64,000 bases of DNA from a plasmid: sequence record NZ_CP086424.1. One strand, written 5' to 3'. This document shows positions 47,729-62,724 of this stretch, in pieces. Position 1 is the stretch's first letter; each line of letters opens with the position of its first letter. A model generated the notes under the pieces. It worked only from the letters and a program-made list of their open reading frames with translations, was not told where the DNA came from and made no database searches. The position numbers and the translations under genes were made by a program.

Positions 47729-47824
47729 CTAGTCTTATGCCGTATGGCATTACTTAACCCCAAGCCGGGGGCTTCTCCCGGTTTTCGGGTGTTGCCCCTG
47801 TTTTTTTTACATAGGAGCAACACC

Positions 47825-48145
47825 ATGCACATCATCACTTTCATTGTAGTTCTGCTTGCATCTCTGGGCGCACTGTACGTAGGCGCGAAGGCATTTGCTT
47901 TTTCCTTCATCGTTCTCGCTAAAGTGTTCCAGCGTATCGGTTTGTTCCTTTGGAACAAATTCGCAGTTCCTGCAATGCGGTCTGTACAGGCCGTCATCAA
48001 AGAACGTGCTGCCAAGGCTGAACAAGCCAAAGCAGTCGTTGAACCTGAGGTAACTCAAGTTCAAGAAGTCGCTAAACAAGAACCTGACTGGGATTATCTC
48101 GAAATCCCGACTTACCTTCGTAAGGGCAAGGAACTTGTTTGGTAA
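47825..48145 (+). CDS. Small membrane protein
   Basis: MHIITFIVVLLASLGALYVGAKAFAFSFIVLA hydrophobic N-terminus. AGGAG Shine-Dalgarno. 106 aa. Confidence 0.5.
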   Translation: MHIITFIVVLLASLGALYVGAKAFAFSFIVLAKVFQRIGLFLWNKFAVPAMRSVQAVIKERAAKAEQAKAVVEPEVTQVQEVAKQEPDWDYLEIPTYLRKGKELVW

Positions 48146-48239
48146 TAACTGTCGCTGAGTAATCTTCGACACTTTCAAACCCATCGGGGCAACCATACCC
48201 CGACGGGGATGTTGCCCCTTTTTGCTTAGGAGCAACATC

Positions 48240-48332
48240 ATGGAAATCGCTATCATCGCTTTGTGTATCCCTGCTGGTTGGGCAATCTCTCGTCCTTTCG
48301 TGAGAATCGCTGAATCGTTCGGTTACTGCTGA
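48240..48332 (+). CDS. 30-aa hydrophobic peptide
   Basis: MEIAIIALCIPAGWAISRPFVRIAESFGYC. The leader is paralogous to that of the 47825 gene. Confidence 0.3.
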   Translation: MEIAIIALCIPAGWAISRPFVRIAESFGYC

Positions 48333-48448
48333 TAGTCAACGCAAAGGGAGGGGGCAACCCCTCTCTTTCTGGTCAAGCCTCTGTGGCTTGTCCTCAAAGT
48401 CTTCTGGTGTCAGTTGGCTTTGACGACAAGCTACAGGGGGAATGTCGA

Positions 48449-48634
48449 ATGCAACAGAATCTTCATGTTTACGACGATCACGCAGGCATCATCTATCTGG
48501 CTGATGGACGCGAGGTGAAATTTGATCCGAAACTGTATTCCAGCTCCTACCAGGCGCACAGTGAAGCAGTGAAGTGGGCCAAAGAAACCGGGGTCATTGG
48601 TCAAAACGACGATGTGGTGATGTTCGTCCATTGA
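48449..48634 (+). CDS. Small hypothetical protein
   Basis: 61 aa, GGGGG Shine-Dalgarno. Confidence 0.35.
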   Translation: MQQNLHVYDDHAGIIYLADGREVKFDPKLYSSSYQAHSEAVKWAKETGVIGQNDDVVMFVH

Positions 48635-48739
48635 GGGAGTAGCCTCCAGGAGAGGCTACTCTCCTCGCTCCTTAAAAGTCTTCTTACTCATGGTGAATAC
48701 CATCAGTAAGCAGATTTTGTTCTCTTCGGAGAGCGAAAA

Positions 48740-48772
48740 GTGCGATAGCTGGTCGCCAAAAACAAACAGCAA
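48740..48772 (+). promoter_or_regulatory. Conserved promoter-like core, copy B
   Basis: GTGCGATAGCTGGTCGCCAAAAACAAACAGCAA. The region 48707–48830 is near-identical to 53542–53665. Confidence 0.5.
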
Positions 48773-48853
48773 ATTAACGTTAATTTACTAGCCCAACCGG
48801 GCGCATCCGCCCGGTTCGGGACGTGGTGCGCCTGTCACAATAGGAGCGCACCT

Positions 48854-49822
48854 ATGTCTCAATACTCTCAATTCTCAGTAAGCAAGGTTTTCGGTATGCC
48901 CAGCATTCCGGAGAAGGTAACGGCCATCGGCTACGCTGACGGTTCAAACCCTTTCATCCCTGCCACTGATACCAACTACGTTTTCCGCAAAGAGTTTCTG
49001 CGAGAGGTCTTGGCCTATCTCAAAGAGCCTGGCGGTGACGCATTGTTCGTAACCGGCCCTACCGGGTCTGGCAAAACCTCAGGTATCACCGAGATCGCTG
49101 GTCGTCTCAACTGGCCTGTTCAGCAAATCACTGCCCACGGGCGGATGGAGCTGACAGATCTGATTGGACATCACGCTCTGGTCGCGGAAAAGCCTGGTCA
49201 ACCACCTGTCATGAAGTTCATGTATGGACCTCTGGCAGTCGCTATGCGTGAAGGTCATCTGCTCCTCATCAACGAGGTGGATTTGGCCGACCCTGCCGAG
49301 CTGGCTGGTCTCAACGATGTCCTTGAAGGGCGTCCCCTTGTGATCGCTCAGAATGGCGGGGAAATCATCAAGCCGCACCCGATGTTTCGTGTGGTCGTTA
49401 CTGGTAACTCTACGGGGTCCGGTGATGCTTCTGGTTTGTACCAGGGGGTGATGATGCAGAACCTCGCAGCTATGGATCGCTATCGTTTCACCAAAGTAGG
49501 GTATGCGGATGAGGAAGCTGAACTCAGCATTCTTGGCCGTGCTACTCCGAAACTTCCGGAAAATGTGCGGAAGGGAATGGTTCGGATTGCTAATCAGGTC
49601 CGCAAACTGTTTCTTGGCGAAAACGGTGAAGATGGTCAGATCAGCGTCACCATGTCCACTCGGACGTTGGTGCGTTGGGCGAAACTGTCTCTAGCGTTCC
49701 GTGGTGCCCCAAATGCTCTTGAATACGCCTTGGATCAAGCTCTGCTTATCCGTGCGGCCAAAGAGGAGCGTGAAGCCATCCTGCGTGTTGCGAAGGATGT
49801 GTTCGGGGACCAATGGCGCTAA
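48854..49822 (+). CDS. CobS/MoxR-like AAA+ ATPase
   Basis: Walker A GPTGSGKTS. Walker B LLLINEVD. 322 aa. Confidence 0.65.
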   Translation: MSQYSQFSVSKVFGMPSIPEKVTAIGYADGSNPFIPATDTNYVFRKEFLREVLAYLKEPGGDALFVTGPTGSGKTSGITEIAGRLNWPVQQITAHGRMELTDLIGHHALVAEKPGQPPVMKFMYGPLAVAMREGHLLLINEVDLADPAELAGLNDVLEGRPLVIAQNGGEIIKPHPMFRVVVTGNSTGSGDASGLYQGVMMQNLAAMDRYRFTKVGYADEEAELSILGRATPKLPENVRKGMVRIANQVRKLFLGENGEDGQISVTMSTRTLVRWAKLSLAFRGAPNALEYALDQALLIRAAKEEREAILRVAKDVFGDQWR

Positions 49823-49832
49823 GAGGTGACGC

Positions 49833-61309: not shown

Positions 61310-61377
61310 CTATGACTGTAACCCCACTGGGGGCTTCATGCCCCTGTGGGGGCATGGTGCCCGTAAAAGGAGTCACC

Positions 61378-61731
61378 ATGAATGCAGTGAAGATGATCCA
61401 GAAGGAAAACCAGCTTGAGCTGCCGCTTTTCTTCCTGGATGAAGAGCCGAAGACCGCAGAAGTCATTCCATTTGAGCCAAAGCCTGAATGGACTGATGAT
61501 GAGGTAAGGCAGTTACGTGATGGGCTTTTATGGCATAGCCTTAGAGTCCTTGCTGATGGTCGAGCTGGAAGTGAAATCAAGCAGGAAACGATGGCTTGGG
61601 TGATGTCCGATGAGGTACATCCATTCTCATTTGTGGTCTGCTGCGATGAAGCAGGTTACGATCCATCTGGAGTAAGGGAAGGCGTGAAGTCTATCCTAAA
61701 CCGCTTAGCGCGGGTTAAAGCGGGGGGTTAA
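61378..61731 (+). CDS. Hypothetical protein
   Basis: 117 aa, AAGGAG Shine-Dalgarno. Confidence 0.45.
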   Translation: MNAVKMIQKENQLELPLFFLDEEPKTAEVIPFEPKPEWTDDEVRQLRDGLLWHSLRVLADGRAGSEIKQETMAWVMSDEVHPFSFVVCCDEAGYDPSGVREGVKSILNRLARVKAGG

Positions 61732-61756
61732 CCCCCTGCTTTCCCAGTGGCATCGA

Positions 61757-61772
61757 CTTTCACATGTGAAAG
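61757..61772. repeat. 16-bp palindrome CTTTCACATGTGAAAG, copy 4
   Basis: Flanked by the inverted repeat GCTTTCC…GGAAAGC. It lies 50 bp upstream of promoter core E. Confidence 0.9.
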
Positions 61773-61820
61773 TTTGTGCCCCTCGGAAAGCAAGATTTTG
61801 CTCTCTGTCGAGAGTGAATA

Positions 61821-61853
61821 GTGAGGTAGCTGGCCTCCCCAAACAAACAGCAT
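61821..61853 (+). promoter_or_regulatory. Conserved promoter-like core, copy E
   Basis: GTGAGGTAGCTGGCCTCCCCAAACAAACAGCAT. Confidence 0.5.
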
Positions 61854-61922
61854 TCTACATAACCCTTGGGGGATCACTGCCCCTCGGGCTGGTGGTTCCC
61901 TGACAAACATGGAGCCACAACT

Positions 61923-62267
61923 ATGACTACTCTTGCCAGCTTTGCGAATCCGATTTCTGTTATTCAACGCTCACCAACCAGTGGGGTGTTTGGCACAAAT
62001 CAGTTCGTAGGAGACAAAGAGGGATTTGTACAAAAGGTGCTCGGAAAGTGGTACTGCAATCCAGGGAATACCATTCCCGTTGAGAGCATGTCCCACCTTG
62101 AGCAGGCGGAGAAACTGTATGACTTCTATGTCAAGTATCTCCAAGTGAAAGAAAAGATCTCTGTGAACCTTGGCCGGGTGCTGCATAAGCTGTACAGCAC
62201 TGGTTCTATCAAGGAAGCAGAGATCGTGCTTGAAGCAATAAAGGCTCAGGCTGGCGTAACAGCTTGA
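61923..62267 (+). CDS. Hypothetical protein
   Basis: 114 aa. Confidence 0.45.
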   Translation: MTTLASFANPISVIQRSPTSGVFGTNQFVGDKEGFVQKVLGKWYCNPGNTIPVESMSHLEQAEKLYDFYVKYLQVKEKISVNLGRVLHKLYSTGSIKEAEIVLEAIKAQAGVTA

Positions 62268-62344
62268 GCAATCTACTAACCCTAAACCGGGTGCATCCGC
62301 CCGGTTCGGGACGTGGTGCGCCCCCAAACTATTTGGAGTGCATC

Positions 62345-62647
62345 ATGGAAAAACATAACCTCAAATCCGGATTCAGCATCTATTTCGCTGACGTCCATTT
62401 CGAGAAACAAGTCTACGCATTCGGCTCAGGACTTGGCTTCACCTCTGTGATTTACGCCTACTCGCTGGGCCGAGATCCGGAAGAAGCTGAGAAGCTGGCG
62501 CTTGAAAAGTACGACTCTGACGAAACGAAGGTGAAGAAGGTGCATGTCAATCTGGCTCGCAGCCAGGACATCAACCGCTACACCTTCCCTGAACAAATGG
62601 CTGGCTTTGCTAATGCCATTCAGTCTCACGGCATCGCTGTGAACTGA
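62345..62647 (+). CDS. Hypothetical protein
   Basis: 100 aa, TGGAG Shine-Dalgarno. Confidence 0.45.
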   Translation: MEKHNLKSGFSIYFADVHFEKQVYAFGSGLGFTSVIYAYSLGRDPEEAEKLALEKYDSDETKVKKVHVNLARSQDINRYTFPEQMAGFANAIQSHGIAVN

Positions 62648-62724
62648 GAACCACTTTAAACCCATCGGGGCCATTACTTCCCGATTGGGACGGTAGTGGC
62701 CTCTCAACCGAAAGGAGAGAGCTC

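Follow-up and report, generated by a model that had tools for sequence, protein, structure and literature searches.

The closest described relative of the elements reported here is the strong translational attenuator upstream of bet in the ICE SXT (Garriss, Poulin-Laprade and Burrus 2013, as cited in PMC4542580). According to that review (PMC4542580), the bet attenuator is also found in IncA/C plasmids. It is described for one gene, and the literature examined makes no mention of an upstream partner hairpin or of a family-wide plan. In the plasmid studied here, to which SXT is a related element, the orthologous junction carries one copy of a two-hairpin unit that stands 5′ of 18 genes in the window and of about 30 genes plasmid-wide.

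REP/BIME elements are GC-rich imperfect palindromes of ≈30–35 nt with a GTAG-type head, which lie in intra-operon gaps, often ≤15 nt from the stop codon, where they stabilise the upstream mRNA and affect translation of the upstream gene. The early mRNA of T7 carries an RNase III hairpin at nearly every junction, with variable stems and internal loops. The com–mom mRNA of phage Mu has two adjacent hairpins, the downstream one hiding the start region and the upstream one lying directly 5′ of it. The attC sites, too, are structure-conserved, sequence-variable hairpins between co-oriented genes, and their 5′ end often provides a TAA stop. The same plasmid block as that of our modules contains the intergenic repeats rptI–rptIV, which Roy et al. 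(2020, PMC7498323) presented not as RNA structures but as DNA on which Bet/Exo annealing takes place. These repeats probably include the 126-bp duplication at 48708–48832 and 53542–53667 and the leader motif described below, matched by position and length only.

The window (the whole 64,000-nt stretch analysed, from record NZ_CP086424.1) is collinear with the E. coli plasmid pAR060302 (NC_012692.1) at 99.99–100% identity. It is therefore IncC (IncA/C2) plasmid backbone, and the region that the initial annotation had called an island is a plasmid backbone block. Every annotated gap was folded and the coordinates refined, yielding 18 two-hairpin modules between positions 47753 and 62727, each 63–82 nt in length. 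The first hairpin (HpA) is GC-rich and mostly 29–31 nt long, with a stem of 10–12 bp and a CCC/GGG base, and usually lies directly 3′ of a UAA or UAG. The second (HpB) mostly starts 0–3 nt after HpA. CATGGTG(C)GCCCC forms the 5′ arm of HpB, and the 3′ arm consists of the Shine-Dalgarno (SD) sequence and spacer, sometimes with the AUG. The initial annotation had listed CATGGTG(C)GCCCC as a box; the sequence does not stand alone but pairs with the SD, spacer and AUG of the next gene. It had counted at least 17 hairpin elements at gene junctions, and the family proves larger, with the 18 modules and one terminator-like variant; its five example elements exist at positions off by 1–7 nt from those given (correctly 51353, 61329, 48795, 53630 and 62285). 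The modules are:

47753–47827, plus strand: module 1, 5′ UTR of the vcrx087 homologue; HpA 47758–47790, HpB 47791–47821, ATG 47825
48175–48242, plus strand: module 2, 5′ of an unannotated 30-aa ORF (48240–48332); HpA 48180–48208, HpB 48209–48238
48788–48856, plus strand: module 3, 5′ of the AAA/CbbQ_C ATPase gene (vcrx089 homologue); HpA 48792–48820, HpB 48822–48856, ATG 48854
50737–50807, plus strand: module 4, 5′ of ssb; HpA 50742–50771, HpB 50775–50802
51348–51429, plus strand: module 5, 5′ of bet; HpA 51353–51382, HpB 51384–51429
52413–52481, plus strand: module 6, 5′ of exo; HpA 52417–52446, HpB 52448–52477
53623–53691, plus strand: module 7, 5′ of the DUF3150 gene; HpA 53627–53655, HpB 53657–53691 with two G·U pairs
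54983–55053, plus strand: module 8, 5′ of the VWA/CobT-like gene; HpA 54988–55017, HpB 55025–55044 (anti-SD/SD pairing)
57444–57511, plus strand: module 9, 5′ of the vcrx098 homologue; HpA 57448–57477 (AGCC/GGCT base), HpB 57479–57509
58074–58141, plus strand: module 10; HpA 58078–58106, HpB 58109–58137
58642–58715, plus strand: module 11, 5′ of the DNA methylase-like gene; HpA 58646–58679, HpB 58681–58715 (AUG paired)
59592–59665, plus strand: module 12, 5′ of the yfaE-like ferredoxin gene; HpA 59598–59626, HpB 59629–59663 (−19.1 kcal/mol)
59883–59951, plus strand: module 13; HpA 59888–59918, HpB 59920–59941
61056–61120, plus strand: module 14, the least typical; HpA 61061–61097, weak HpB 61100–61113
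61318–61380, plus strand: module 15; HpA 61322–61352, HpB 61353–61380 (CAUGGUG:CACCAUG)
61858–61925, plus strand: module 16; HpA 61863–61888, HpB 61892–61918
62276–62347, plus strand: module 17; HpA 62280–62310, HpB 62312–62347
62656–62727, plus strand: module 18, 5′ of the second DNA cytosine methyltransferase gene; HpA 62661–62689, HpB 62696–62726

The mapped AcaCD-dependent start site (window position 47671–47673) is upstream of module 1, and module 2 is the best R1 match, at 37 bits. In module 5, which is orthologous in position to the SXT bet attenuator, HpB encloses a small inner hairpin and the AUG is paired; the SXT/R391 bet junction itself has an HpA (CCC-AG-CCGGGAG...) and then, covering the SD, a GACUCC/GGAGUC hairpin. 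Modules 3, 7 and 17 are near-identical copies, and the HpB stems of modules 8, 13 and 14 are weak, at −4 to −9 kcal/mol.

Within a block of 27 kb on the resistance plasmid, nearly all genes have the unit at their 5′ side. When the whole 166.5-kb plasmid was scanned with a covariance model built from eight HpA copies of the window, all matches at the E < 1 cut-off fell in one block, made up of 47.7–62.7 kb of the window and the next ≈12.7 kb; the family runs ≈12–12.7 kb beyond the window end. Gap lengths in the block are trimodal (≤15 nt; 55–114 nt, with a median of 72; and 165–460 nt), and only one gap measures 16–54 nt. The tra genes of the window mostly overlap or lie ≤15 nt apart, and the longer tra gaps in the window carry no module.

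Three other kinds of hairpin accompany the modules. The junction at 56861–56907 is terminator-like, with a single hairpin, and falls outside the two-hairpin class. At this position IncA has an extra DUF3085 gene between two similar hairpins, and that gene appears to have been lost from between them. A leader hairpin, a separate element with a covarying stem and an invariant UAGCUGG loop, stands at the head of each sub-operon. Its first copy is transcribed and begins ≈26 nt past the mapped start site. Hairpins of a further type are found at sub-operon ends; the one at 57317–57345 probably sits in the vcrx098 leader, since the last stop codon before it is ≈70 nt away and the AcaCD box (≈57259–57285) lies upstream of it.

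56861–56907, plus strand: variant junction, one long hairpin (stem 56864–56893), then TTTTTATTT, then the RBS
47698–47727, plus strand: leader hairpin copy 1, GAGA-TAGCTGG-TCTC, then AAAACAAACAGCA
48742–48771, plus strand: leader hairpin copy 2, GCGA-TAGCTGG-TCGC with an A-rich CAGCA tail
53577–53606, plus strand: leader hairpin copy 3, within a 126-bp repeat with 99% identity to 48708–48832
57409–57438, plus strand: leader hairpin copy 4
61823–61852, plus strand: leader hairpin copy 5, GAGG-TAGCTGG-CCTC
48340–48371, plus strand: sub-operon-end hairpin, A-tract, GC stem and CTTTC, weakly terminator-like
53488–53513, plus strand: sub-operon-end hairpin 3′ of exo, then CTTTCCC
57317–57345, plus strand: hairpin of the sub-operon-end type, AAAG-stem-CUUUC
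61712–61745, plus strand: sub-operon-end hairpin whose loop holds the TAA stop of the upstream gene

HpA goes with the downstream gene, not with the upstream one. It occurs in the 5′ UTRs of first genes, which have no upstream ORF, and even there is preceded by UAA or UAG. No HpA follows the last genes of sub-operons, where a different hairpin is found.

Several features point to a structure that is selected in the mRNA, with all folding done by thermodynamic prediction. Junction folds had a mean z of ≈ −3.6 relative to dinucleotide shuffles. When arms were swapped between modules, the predicted pairing energy changed from −14.8 to −10.9 kcal/mol for HpB and from −20.6 to −14.7 kcal/mol for HpA, and none of 20,000 permutations was as good as the true arms in either case. 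In one subfamily of HpB, 91.8% of the cells were paired and three pairs had both sides changed, a covariation score matched by 1 of 500 shuffles. These tests bear out the earlier remark that the stems vary in sequence and keep their complementarity. Among 82 annotation-defined junctions from five elements, the sense strand folded more stably at 63 (p = 5 × 10⁻⁸). The sense strand had 14 A·C 1 × 1 mismatches vs. 50 in the antisense strand, as expected if the mRNA tolerates G·U pairs.

The two-hairpin plan is also present at orthologous junctions of IncA, Edwardsiella, Vibrio, Alcanivorax, Halomonas and Comamonas elements and of SXT/R391 ICEs, with stem sequences that differ between elements. 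The initial annotation had made its case depend on conservation outside this replicon, and such conservation was found: the covariance model gave 118 matches in related loci, spread over 14 of 16, and the orthologous junctions were structured in 13 lineages, including SXT/R391 (median z −2.8 to −5.4). The two module-free lineages had z values of −1.3 and +0.9.

The paired region coincides with the ribosome binding site. In the mean pairing profile of the 82 junctions, the 3′ arm of HpB covers positions −12 to −2 with a pairing probability of 0.65–0.82, the most frequent start of the SD is at −11 to −9, and the HpB loop lies at −19 to −13. The median cost of opening the RBS was 11.5 kcal/mol for block genes with a module, compared to 6.9 kcal/mol for other genes of the window (Mann-Whitney p = 0.001). 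GGAG or GAGG was present upstream of 20 of 22 block genes vs. 28 of 49 elsewhere (p = 0.006), and a strong SD combined with a mask suggests regulation rather than a lack of translation. A sequestering RNA structure had been predicted earlier for the RBS of vcrx089 (Roy 2020, PMC7498323).

On balance, we consider it probable that each module is a cis-acting mRNA element that sets the level at which the next gene is translated, mostly by damping it. An anti-SD/anti-spacer segment in HpB would pair with the SD and spacer, and in some copies with the start codon too, and entry of the 30S subunit would therefore be limited to the moments when HpB breathes open, as in a classical translational attenuator, here repeated 5′ of about 30 genes. 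The predicted pairing supports this role of HpB well. HpA, about which we are less certain, is probably a structured insulator or clamp: a GC-rich stretch of 29–31 nt that occupies the interval from the upstream stop codon (or leader) to HpB and would leave no single-stranded standby or loading site and hold terminating ribosomes too distant to melt HpB, thereby uncoupling adjacent cistrons. Stacking on HpB or shielding of the RNA from nucleases may be further effects of HpA. The present analysis shows the structures with their strand, covariation and conservation; that the SXT bet copy attenuates comes from published work, and we infer the same of the other copies, as well as the part played by HpA. 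Any attenuation is partial at most, because the block genes are expressed and functional in published genetics (the hde phenotype).

The suggestion that these are RNA-level cis elements along a polycistronic mRNA holds up. The step controlled is likely to be translation initiation and not transcription, because the HpB 3′ arm is made of the SD, spacer and sometimes the AUG, HpA has no U-tract, published RT-PCR shows read-through, and RNA-seq levels are non-monotonic along the operon.

A rather unlikely reading is that the modules control segmental mRNA stability or processing. HpA would then be a 3′-exonuclease barrier, like REP or the malEFG/puf intercistronic hairpins, with RNase E/III cutting at the HpA–HpB junction, so that each cistron becomes an RNA capped by a hairpin at either end and decays at its own rate; attenuation could operate alongside. 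The tight HpA–HpB spacing in most copies fits such a scheme, as do the 18 of 51 internal junctions at which a GC-rich hairpin follows the stop codon at a distance of 0 nt and the published RNA-seq means for one transcript, which rise and fall across modules with no steady step-down (vcrx089 3463, vcrx090 904, ssb 1448, bet 4762, exo 1908). However, the largest fall, from vcrx089 to vcrx090, is at a module-free 10-nt gap, and the placement of HpA 5′ of first genes and its absence 3′ of the last sub-operon genes argue against it. Stems of 10–12 bp are also on the short side for RNase III; the T7 sites are longer (≈20 bp plus an internal loop), are cleaved and, unlike the modules, are not built on the SD of the next gene. 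RNA-level effects may nonetheless be present alongside translational damping, because neighbouring cistrons differ by up to 5-fold in RNA-seq.

The attenuator model does without HpA and leaves its features unexplained; the near-invariant base, the tight 29–31-nt length and the preceding UAA or UAG hint at specific recognition. HpA might be the target of an RNA-binding protein, of plasmid or host origin, which would open or lock the adjacent RBS hairpin, as Com does on the mom mRNA of phage Mu, making the block one post-transcriptional regulon. We consider this improbable, although HpB always adjoins HpA, the com–mom layout looks alike in outline, and the fixed size and CCC-NN-GGGG...CCCC-NN-GGG plan of HpA are kept across distant elements. 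The Mu system is single-copy, whereas the modules form a family, and its upstream hairpin is the site of the Com activator, whereas no block protein matched an RNA-binding Pfam family (most had no Pfam match of any kind). The CCC/GGG base, seen in 112–115 of 115 HpA copies, a count biased by covariance-model selection favouring such copies, may equally reflect selection for stability.

Partial terminators or pause sites grading transcript levels down the operon, as first proposed in the initial annotation, are very improbable. Stable GC hairpins do stand at gene ends, and the stem at 56864–56893 and the sub-operon-end hairpins resemble intrinsic terminators. The absence of a long T-run holds for every HpA copy (the consensus scan flagged none) and breaks down only for that variant stem. 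In published RT-PCR the transcript runs unbroken from vcrx087 to the vcrx094 3′ end, RNA-seq goes up as well as down across modules, and terminators would leave the RBS-tied second hairpin unexplained.

Least probable of all is a function in DNA, either as promoters, priming signals or Bet/Exo pause and annealing sites on single-stranded plasmid DNA or as REP- or attC-like mobile or recombination sites: three near-identical modules lie in repeats of the kind that serve as single-strand annealing substrates, where palindromes were proposed to slow Exo (Roy 2020, PMC7498323), and the apparent DUF3085 gene loss occurred between two similar hairpins, but the gene-sense strand folds better, with G·U in place of A·C, the arms follow the stop codon, SD and AUG, and a mean column identity of ≈51% among HpA copies is poor for annealing. 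The proposed hairpin promoters are not supported: the stems lack −35/−10 hexamers, and sigma-70-like sites are depleted in the region (3 vs. 9.8 ± 3.5 in shuffles). Nor is the suggested REP-like mobile repeat: REP copies are near-identical, chromosome-wide and served by RAYT transposases, whereas HpA is divergent, confined to one plasmid block, has a CCC/GGG base instead of the GTAG-type head and always accompanies an RBS hairpin. The attC sites act as bottom-strand single-stranded DNA and need IntI, and their RYYYAAC/GTTRRRY cores are absent from the modules save by chance in the AACCGGG...CCCGGTT subfamily; the block has no integrase gene, and the second hairpin of the module spans the would-be cassette boundary. 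As terminators, single-stranded-DNA promoters, attC sites or mobile REP elements, the modules failed the respective tests, and repeat recombination is better seen as a side effect.

Under the translational attenuator model, AcaCD/SetCD-dependent operons would combine strong transcription with a low protein output set gene by gene, and the damped products would include SSB, Bet, Exo, methylases and anti-restriction proteins. Damping through an RBS hairpin had been reported for one or two genes of the block only; here it would be family-wide, suggesting that translation of recombination and anti-defence genes is damped across the plasmid.

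Folding of each intergenic gap placed 18 two-hairpin modules between positions 47753 and 62727, together with one terminator-like variant at 56861–56907, confirming and extending the family of at least 17 hairpin elements that the initial annotation had proposed between these genes. The first hairpin (HpA) is GC-rich and begins at or just past the stop codon, while the second (HpB) lies 0–3 nt downstream of it in most copies. HpA is 26–37 nt long (29–31 nt in 13 of the 18 copies), and a UAA or UAG stands directly ahead of it in 12 of the 18, including 5′ UTR copies that have no upstream gene. 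The CATGGTG(C)GCCCC box noted in the initial annotation is present, but it constitutes the 5′ arm of HpB and pairs with the SD, the spacer and sometimes the AUG; the example elements listed there also exist, at positions 1–7 nt from those first assigned. Direct folding located about 12 additional modules immediately beyond the end of the window.

The region had been described as an island. It is instead plasmid backbone: the E. coli plasmid pAR060302 (NC_012692.1) is collinear with the entire window at 99.99–100% identity, and more than 800 IncC plasmids match positions 47700–62800 at ≥99% identity. The first 47 kb of the window carry parAB, traI/traD, the tra operons and an ISEcp1-blaCMY-2 insertion, which also holds a guanidine-II (mini-ykkC) riboswitch upstream of sugE (29702–29746, minus strand; 47.2 bits, compared to a gathering score of 32), an association that is already known. 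The majority of the tra genes overlap or are spaced by ≤15 nt. Gene spacing in the module-bearing block is mostly 57–94 nt, increasing to 190–300 nt at the start of a new sub-operon. The block includes the hde operon (AAA/CbbQ_C ATPase, vcrx090, ssb, bet and exo), whose anti-restriction genes and ssb/bet/exo allow the plasmid to survive restriction and CRISPR upon entry (PMC7498323). Other block genes encode DUF3150, VWA/CobT-like and methylase-like proteins, a yfaE-like ferredoxin and dcm, along with many small products that have no Pfam match; no RNA-binding domains were found when 20 proteins from the region were scanned against Pfam. In the pAR060302 record, mobI (323–862) adjoins repA, far from traI. 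This position, at 0.3 kb of the record, rules out an oriT adjoining traI and places oriT likewise beside repA, at least 80 kb from the module block one way and at least 56 kb the other way. The block is thus not an oriT-adjacent leading region.

The junctions fold more stably than dinucleotide shuffles, with a mean z-score of about −3.6. When the arms of the hairpins were swapped between copies, the HpA duplex weakened from −20.6 to −14.7 and that of HpB from −14.8 to −10.9, and in neither case was the observed mean matched in any of 20,000 permutations. Gap lengths in five related elements were trimodal (≤15, 55–114 and 165–460 nt), and the nearly empty 16–54 nt class, with a single gap, indicates that the module behaves as a discrete unit. 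Covariance modeling was confined to HpA, since the HpB loops were too variable to provide a trustworthy seed for the full module. A model built from eight window copies of HpA (R1) was run against the whole plasmid with filters off. All matches with E < 1 fell in one 27-kb block, consisting of window positions 47.7–62.7 kb and the following 12.7 kb; there were none in the first 47 kb of the window, the resistance islands or the other 54 kb of backbone. Alignment of the 18 paralogues, or of bet orthologues, with MAFFT followed by RNAalifold recovered only the invariant GGGG/CCCC core. MAFFT alignments are not structure-aware, and arm-swap permutations and covariance-model alignment were therefore used instead.

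Three annotated relatives, namely IncA and plasmids from Edwardsiella and Vibrio, have the two-hairpin plan at orthologous junctions with different stem sequences. A DUF3150 protein scan with one genome per species yielded 80 loci. In many elements, the plan recurs upstream of the AAA, bet, exo, DUF3150 and VWA genes and one other gene; these include elements from Alcanivorax, Paraglaciecola, Azomonas, Marinobacterium, Marinomonas, Halomonas, Maricurvus and Comamonas, as well as the SXT/R391 ICEs. The orthologous 80-nt upstream regions had median z-scores of −2.8 to −5.4 in 13 lineages. The corresponding values were −1.3 for the Photobacterium plasmid pPGC22 and +0.9 for the Thorsellia anophelis element, both of which retain at least the core genes (AAA, bet, exo, DUF3150 and VWA), have largely lost the modules and gave no R1 matches. 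These two elements are natural negative controls.

Scanning related elements with a covariance model, as the initial annotation had suggested, gave 118 R1 matches with E ≤ 1, mostly on the gene strand, in 14 of 16 loci. In the R1-fitted alignment, the CCC/GGG and GG/CC cores hardly vary and the flanking pairs covary; the covariation score was 0.199, compared to 0.092 in shuffles (0 of 500), in an alignment that leans toward the model by construction. A structure-blind alignment of an HpB subfamily (A5) had 91.8% of its cells paired, with changes on both sides in three pairs (1 of 500 shuffles). Among the SXT/R391 ICEs, the inner stem upstream of the AAA gene exhibits a swap from U-A to C-G, with U·G intermediates.

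Several observations point to mRNA as the molecule concerned. At 82 junctions picked by annotation only, the gene-sense strand was the more stable in 63 (p = 5e-8), and 14 single A·C mismatches occurred in the sense orientation, compared to 50 in the antisense one, a pattern that tolerance of G·U pairs on the sense strand would produce. This bias, together with the tie of the modules to stop codons, SD and AUG, points to the transcript. In the mean pairing profile of the same junctions, the HpA arms fall at about −60 to −52 and −45 to −40, followed by the HpB 5′ arm at −37 to −21, its loop at −19 to −13 and its 3′ arm at −12 to −2. Positions −12 to −2 are paired at 0.65–0.82, and the SD most often starts at −11 to −9.

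In a classical translational attenuator, a stable local hairpin conceals a strong SD. Strong SDs (GGAG/GAGG) precede 20 of 22 block genes, compared to 28 of 49 genes elsewhere, and the median predicted cost of opening positions −18 to +5 was 11.5 kcal/mol for block genes with a module and 6.9 kcal/mol for the other 49 genes of the window (p = 0.001). The pairing profile and the opening cost thus place the SD and/or start codon in a local hairpin stem, and the arm swaps, the A5 covariation and the sense-strand bias indicate that this pairing is kept by selection. For SXT bet, a translational attenuator is described in PMC4542580, which states that it also occurs in IncA/C plasmids, and a structure sequestering the ribosome-binding site (RBS) of vcrx089 was predicted by Roy et al. 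(PMC7498323). From these predicted structures, the modules most likely act by masking the RBS. The earlier view of the hairpins as RNA elements that shape expression along polycistronic mRNAs survives, with RBS masking as the most likely means.

HpA travels with the downstream RBS hairpin and not with the upstream gene: 5′ UTRs contain it, and the final genes of sub-operons are not followed by it. It may serve as a structured spacer that would remove single-stranded standby sites and would prevent terminating ribosomes from melting HpB, and it may stack on HpB. We considered a three-state switch, in which a ribosome at the stop codon melts the 5′ arm of HpA, so that its GGGG is free to pair with the box CCCC and the RBS becomes accessible. 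With the stop codon and 11 nt forced unpaired, the mean cost of RBS opening was unchanged (10.6 vs. 10.3 kcal/mol), and only 2 of 13 junctions were loosened; the switch was rejected as a general mechanism.

A role in mRNA processing or stability is possible, and is hinted at by published RNA-seq means that rise and fall along the operon, although the biggest drop occurs at a junction without a module. RNase III sites consist of about 20 bp of double-stranded RNA and are cleaved in vivo. The single stems are too short for such a site, but a longer helix could arise by stacking of HpA on HpB, which is conceivable with the linker of 0–3 nt found in most copies. We regard as improbable a more elaborate scheme, in which HpA and the leader hairpin described below would be recognition sites of a three-layer post-transcriptional regulon that coordinates the translation of about 30 genes. 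Under this scheme, the 29–31 nt HpA would be the site of a trans-acting factor that opens or locks the neighboring RBS hairpin, and the leader hairpin would be a second recognition site, possibly nut- or ops-like, for antitermination or processing. The roughly 30 genes, which serve establishment and anti-defence in IncC, IncA and related plasmids, would then be translated in one coordinated burst, for example just after entry into a new host. The SXT/R391 ICEs would share only the HpA/HpB layer, as no leader hairpin was found in the three SXT/R391 loci scanned.

Transcription termination fits less well. An intrinsic (Rho-independent) terminator is a GC-rich hairpin directly 5′ of a U-tract. 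None of the 18 HpA copies has a U-tract and none was flagged in a terminator scan, in line with the initial remark that the hairpins lack a long T-run and are probably not full terminators; on the plus strand, the scan returned only a strong hit at 56864–56893 and a weak one at the 48350 sub-operon-end hairpin. Published RT-PCR demonstrates read-through (PMC7498323), and the RNA-seq means go up as well as down along the operon. Together, these observations also argue against the suggestion that the elements are partial attenuators acting by transcript termination.

The proposal of hairpin promoters active on single-stranded DNA fares no better. Frpo-type promoters are long hairpins whose stems recreate the −35 and −10 hexamers, whereas the module stems are 10–12 bp of G and C. 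Only three sigma-70-like sites occur in 15.6 kb, compared to 9.8 ± 3.5 in shuffles, and none of the three is recreated within a hairpin stem; the one that overlaps a module (47806–47835) starts in the module 1 HpB loop and extends into the coding sequence. The further suggestion of a REP-like mobile repeat is contradicted by sequence and distribution: REP/RAYT repeats occur as many near-identical copies dispersed over the genome, with a conserved GTAG-type head, whereas HpA has a mean column identity of 51% and a CCC/GGG base, and on the plasmid its R1 matches with E < 1 are confined to the single block. Integron attC sites, which have RYYYAAC...GTTRRRY cores, function as bottom-strand DNA and have IntI as partner, were rejected, because most copies lack the cores, the sense strand folds better and the only intI1 of the plasmid is in a distant resistance island.

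Each sub-operon is headed by a different structure, a leader hairpin located about 45–60 nt before the first module, with a 4-bp stem, an invariant TAGCTGG loop (occasionally TAACTGG or TAGCTGA) and the tail AAACAAACAGCA. Five copies were identified:
47698–47727, plus strand, leader hairpin
48742–48771, plus strand, leader hairpin
53577–53606, plus strand, leader hairpin
57409–57438, plus strand, leader hairpin
61823–61852, plus strand, leader hairpin

Across 19 scanned sources, the gene strand carried 51 copies and the opposite strand none; the three SXT/R391 loci among these sources had no copy. When 28 diverse copies were compared, each of the four stem pairs showed compensatory changes and all cells were paired. 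A possible, almost invariant pseudoknot between loop and tail (GCUG/CAGC) is predicted; for the stem with this candidate pseudoknot, the covariation score was 0.431, compared to 0.176 (0 of 500). AcaCD boxes lie at 47609–47637 and about 57259–57285, with a start site at 47671–47673 (Carraro Table S3). Neither the leader hairpin nor the repeated GCGATAGCTGGTCGCC... motif is an AcaCD box: the boxes lie elsewhere, and box and start site are upstream of the first leader copy, so that this copy is transcribed and the motif belongs to the transcribed leader. Rfam contained no match for the leader hairpin. In the region as a whole, there was no Rfam match at the gathering score, and relaxing the threshold to E up to 5 added only four chance-level matches. 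Separate from the modules, the leader hairpin has good support as a candidate new cis-regulatory motif; any role in antitermination, processing or protein binding is conjectural.

Another class of hairpin, distinct from the modules and weakly terminator-like in appearance, is found at the sub-operon boundaries:
48340–48371, plus strand, A-tract, GC stem and CUUUC(C/U)
53488–53513, plus strand, A-tract, GC stem and CUUUC(C/U)
57317–57345, plus strand, A-tract, GC stem and CUUUC(C/U)
61712–61745, plus strand, A-tract, GC stem and CUUUC(C/U); the loop contains the stop codon of the preceding gene

The block's intergenic repeats are known annealing substrates of Bet/Exo (Roy 2020, PMC7498323). One repeat lies at the following positions:
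48708–48832 and 53542–53667, direct repeat of 126 bp with 99% identity

It contains a UUCG-loop hairpin, the leader hairpin, an AT-rich hairpin and HpA, and is probably one of the rpt repeats of Roy 2020 (Bet/Exo single-strand annealing); three near-identical modules are located in this duplication. In IncA (locus L003, 13160–13830), and in pVCR94 by its gene list, a DUF3085 gene lies between two similar terminator-like hairpins. Window positions 56848–56908 hold a single hybrid hairpin and no DUF3085 gene, which suggests that the gene was lost from this IncC plasmid by recombination between the hairpins. From the Bet/Exo repeats, the duplicated modules and the DUF3085 loss, recombination at modules is real, and looks like a consequence rather than a selected function.

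The modules also bear on the annotation. A complete two-hairpin module with a GGAG SD, which is the top-scoring HpA match of R1, precedes an unannotated ORF:
48240–48332, plus strand, 30-codon ORF (MEIAIIALCIPAGWAISRPFVRIAESFGYC)

This ORF probably encodes a real small hydrophobic protein. In three genes, the CAUGGUG arm of HpB contains an AUG upstream of the annotated start and in the same reading frame:
51385, upstream AUG of bet; annotated start at 51427
58674/58683, upstream AUG; annotated start at 58713
61354, upstream AUG; annotated start at 61378

In the pVCR94 annotation, bet begins at the upstream AUG (1032 bp), while RefSeq places its start at 51427. The upstream AUG was rejected as the true start, being in frame for three genes in IncC and not conserved in relatives: in the Alcanivorax locus it opens a short upstream ORF closed by an in-frame stop, and in the Vibrio locus it is out of frame.

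Full-text literature searches returned no family-wide account of hairpins in these elements. Only single members are already known; what appears to be new is the modular family with its HpA partner, its spread over IncC, IncA, SXT/R391 and marine relatives, and the leader hairpin. If every block gene is masked in this way, the modules would account for polar and unexpected deletion effects in the region, point to start-codon annotation problems such as bet at 51385 or 51427, and predict one unannotated 30-aa gene. The approximately 30 putative natural attenuators, diverse in sequence and isostructural, would also be a resource on the relationship between hairpin stability and translation. IncC and IncA plasmids, like SXT/R391 ICEs, are major vehicles for multidrug resistance, and beside the hde operon the block encodes methylases and many genes with no assigned function. 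If each block gene has its own RBS mask, protein output would be decoupled from the very strong transcription driven by AcaCD/SetCD. In that case, RNA-seq would be a poor guide to expression, and the lone SXT bet attenuator would become a design rule across the family.
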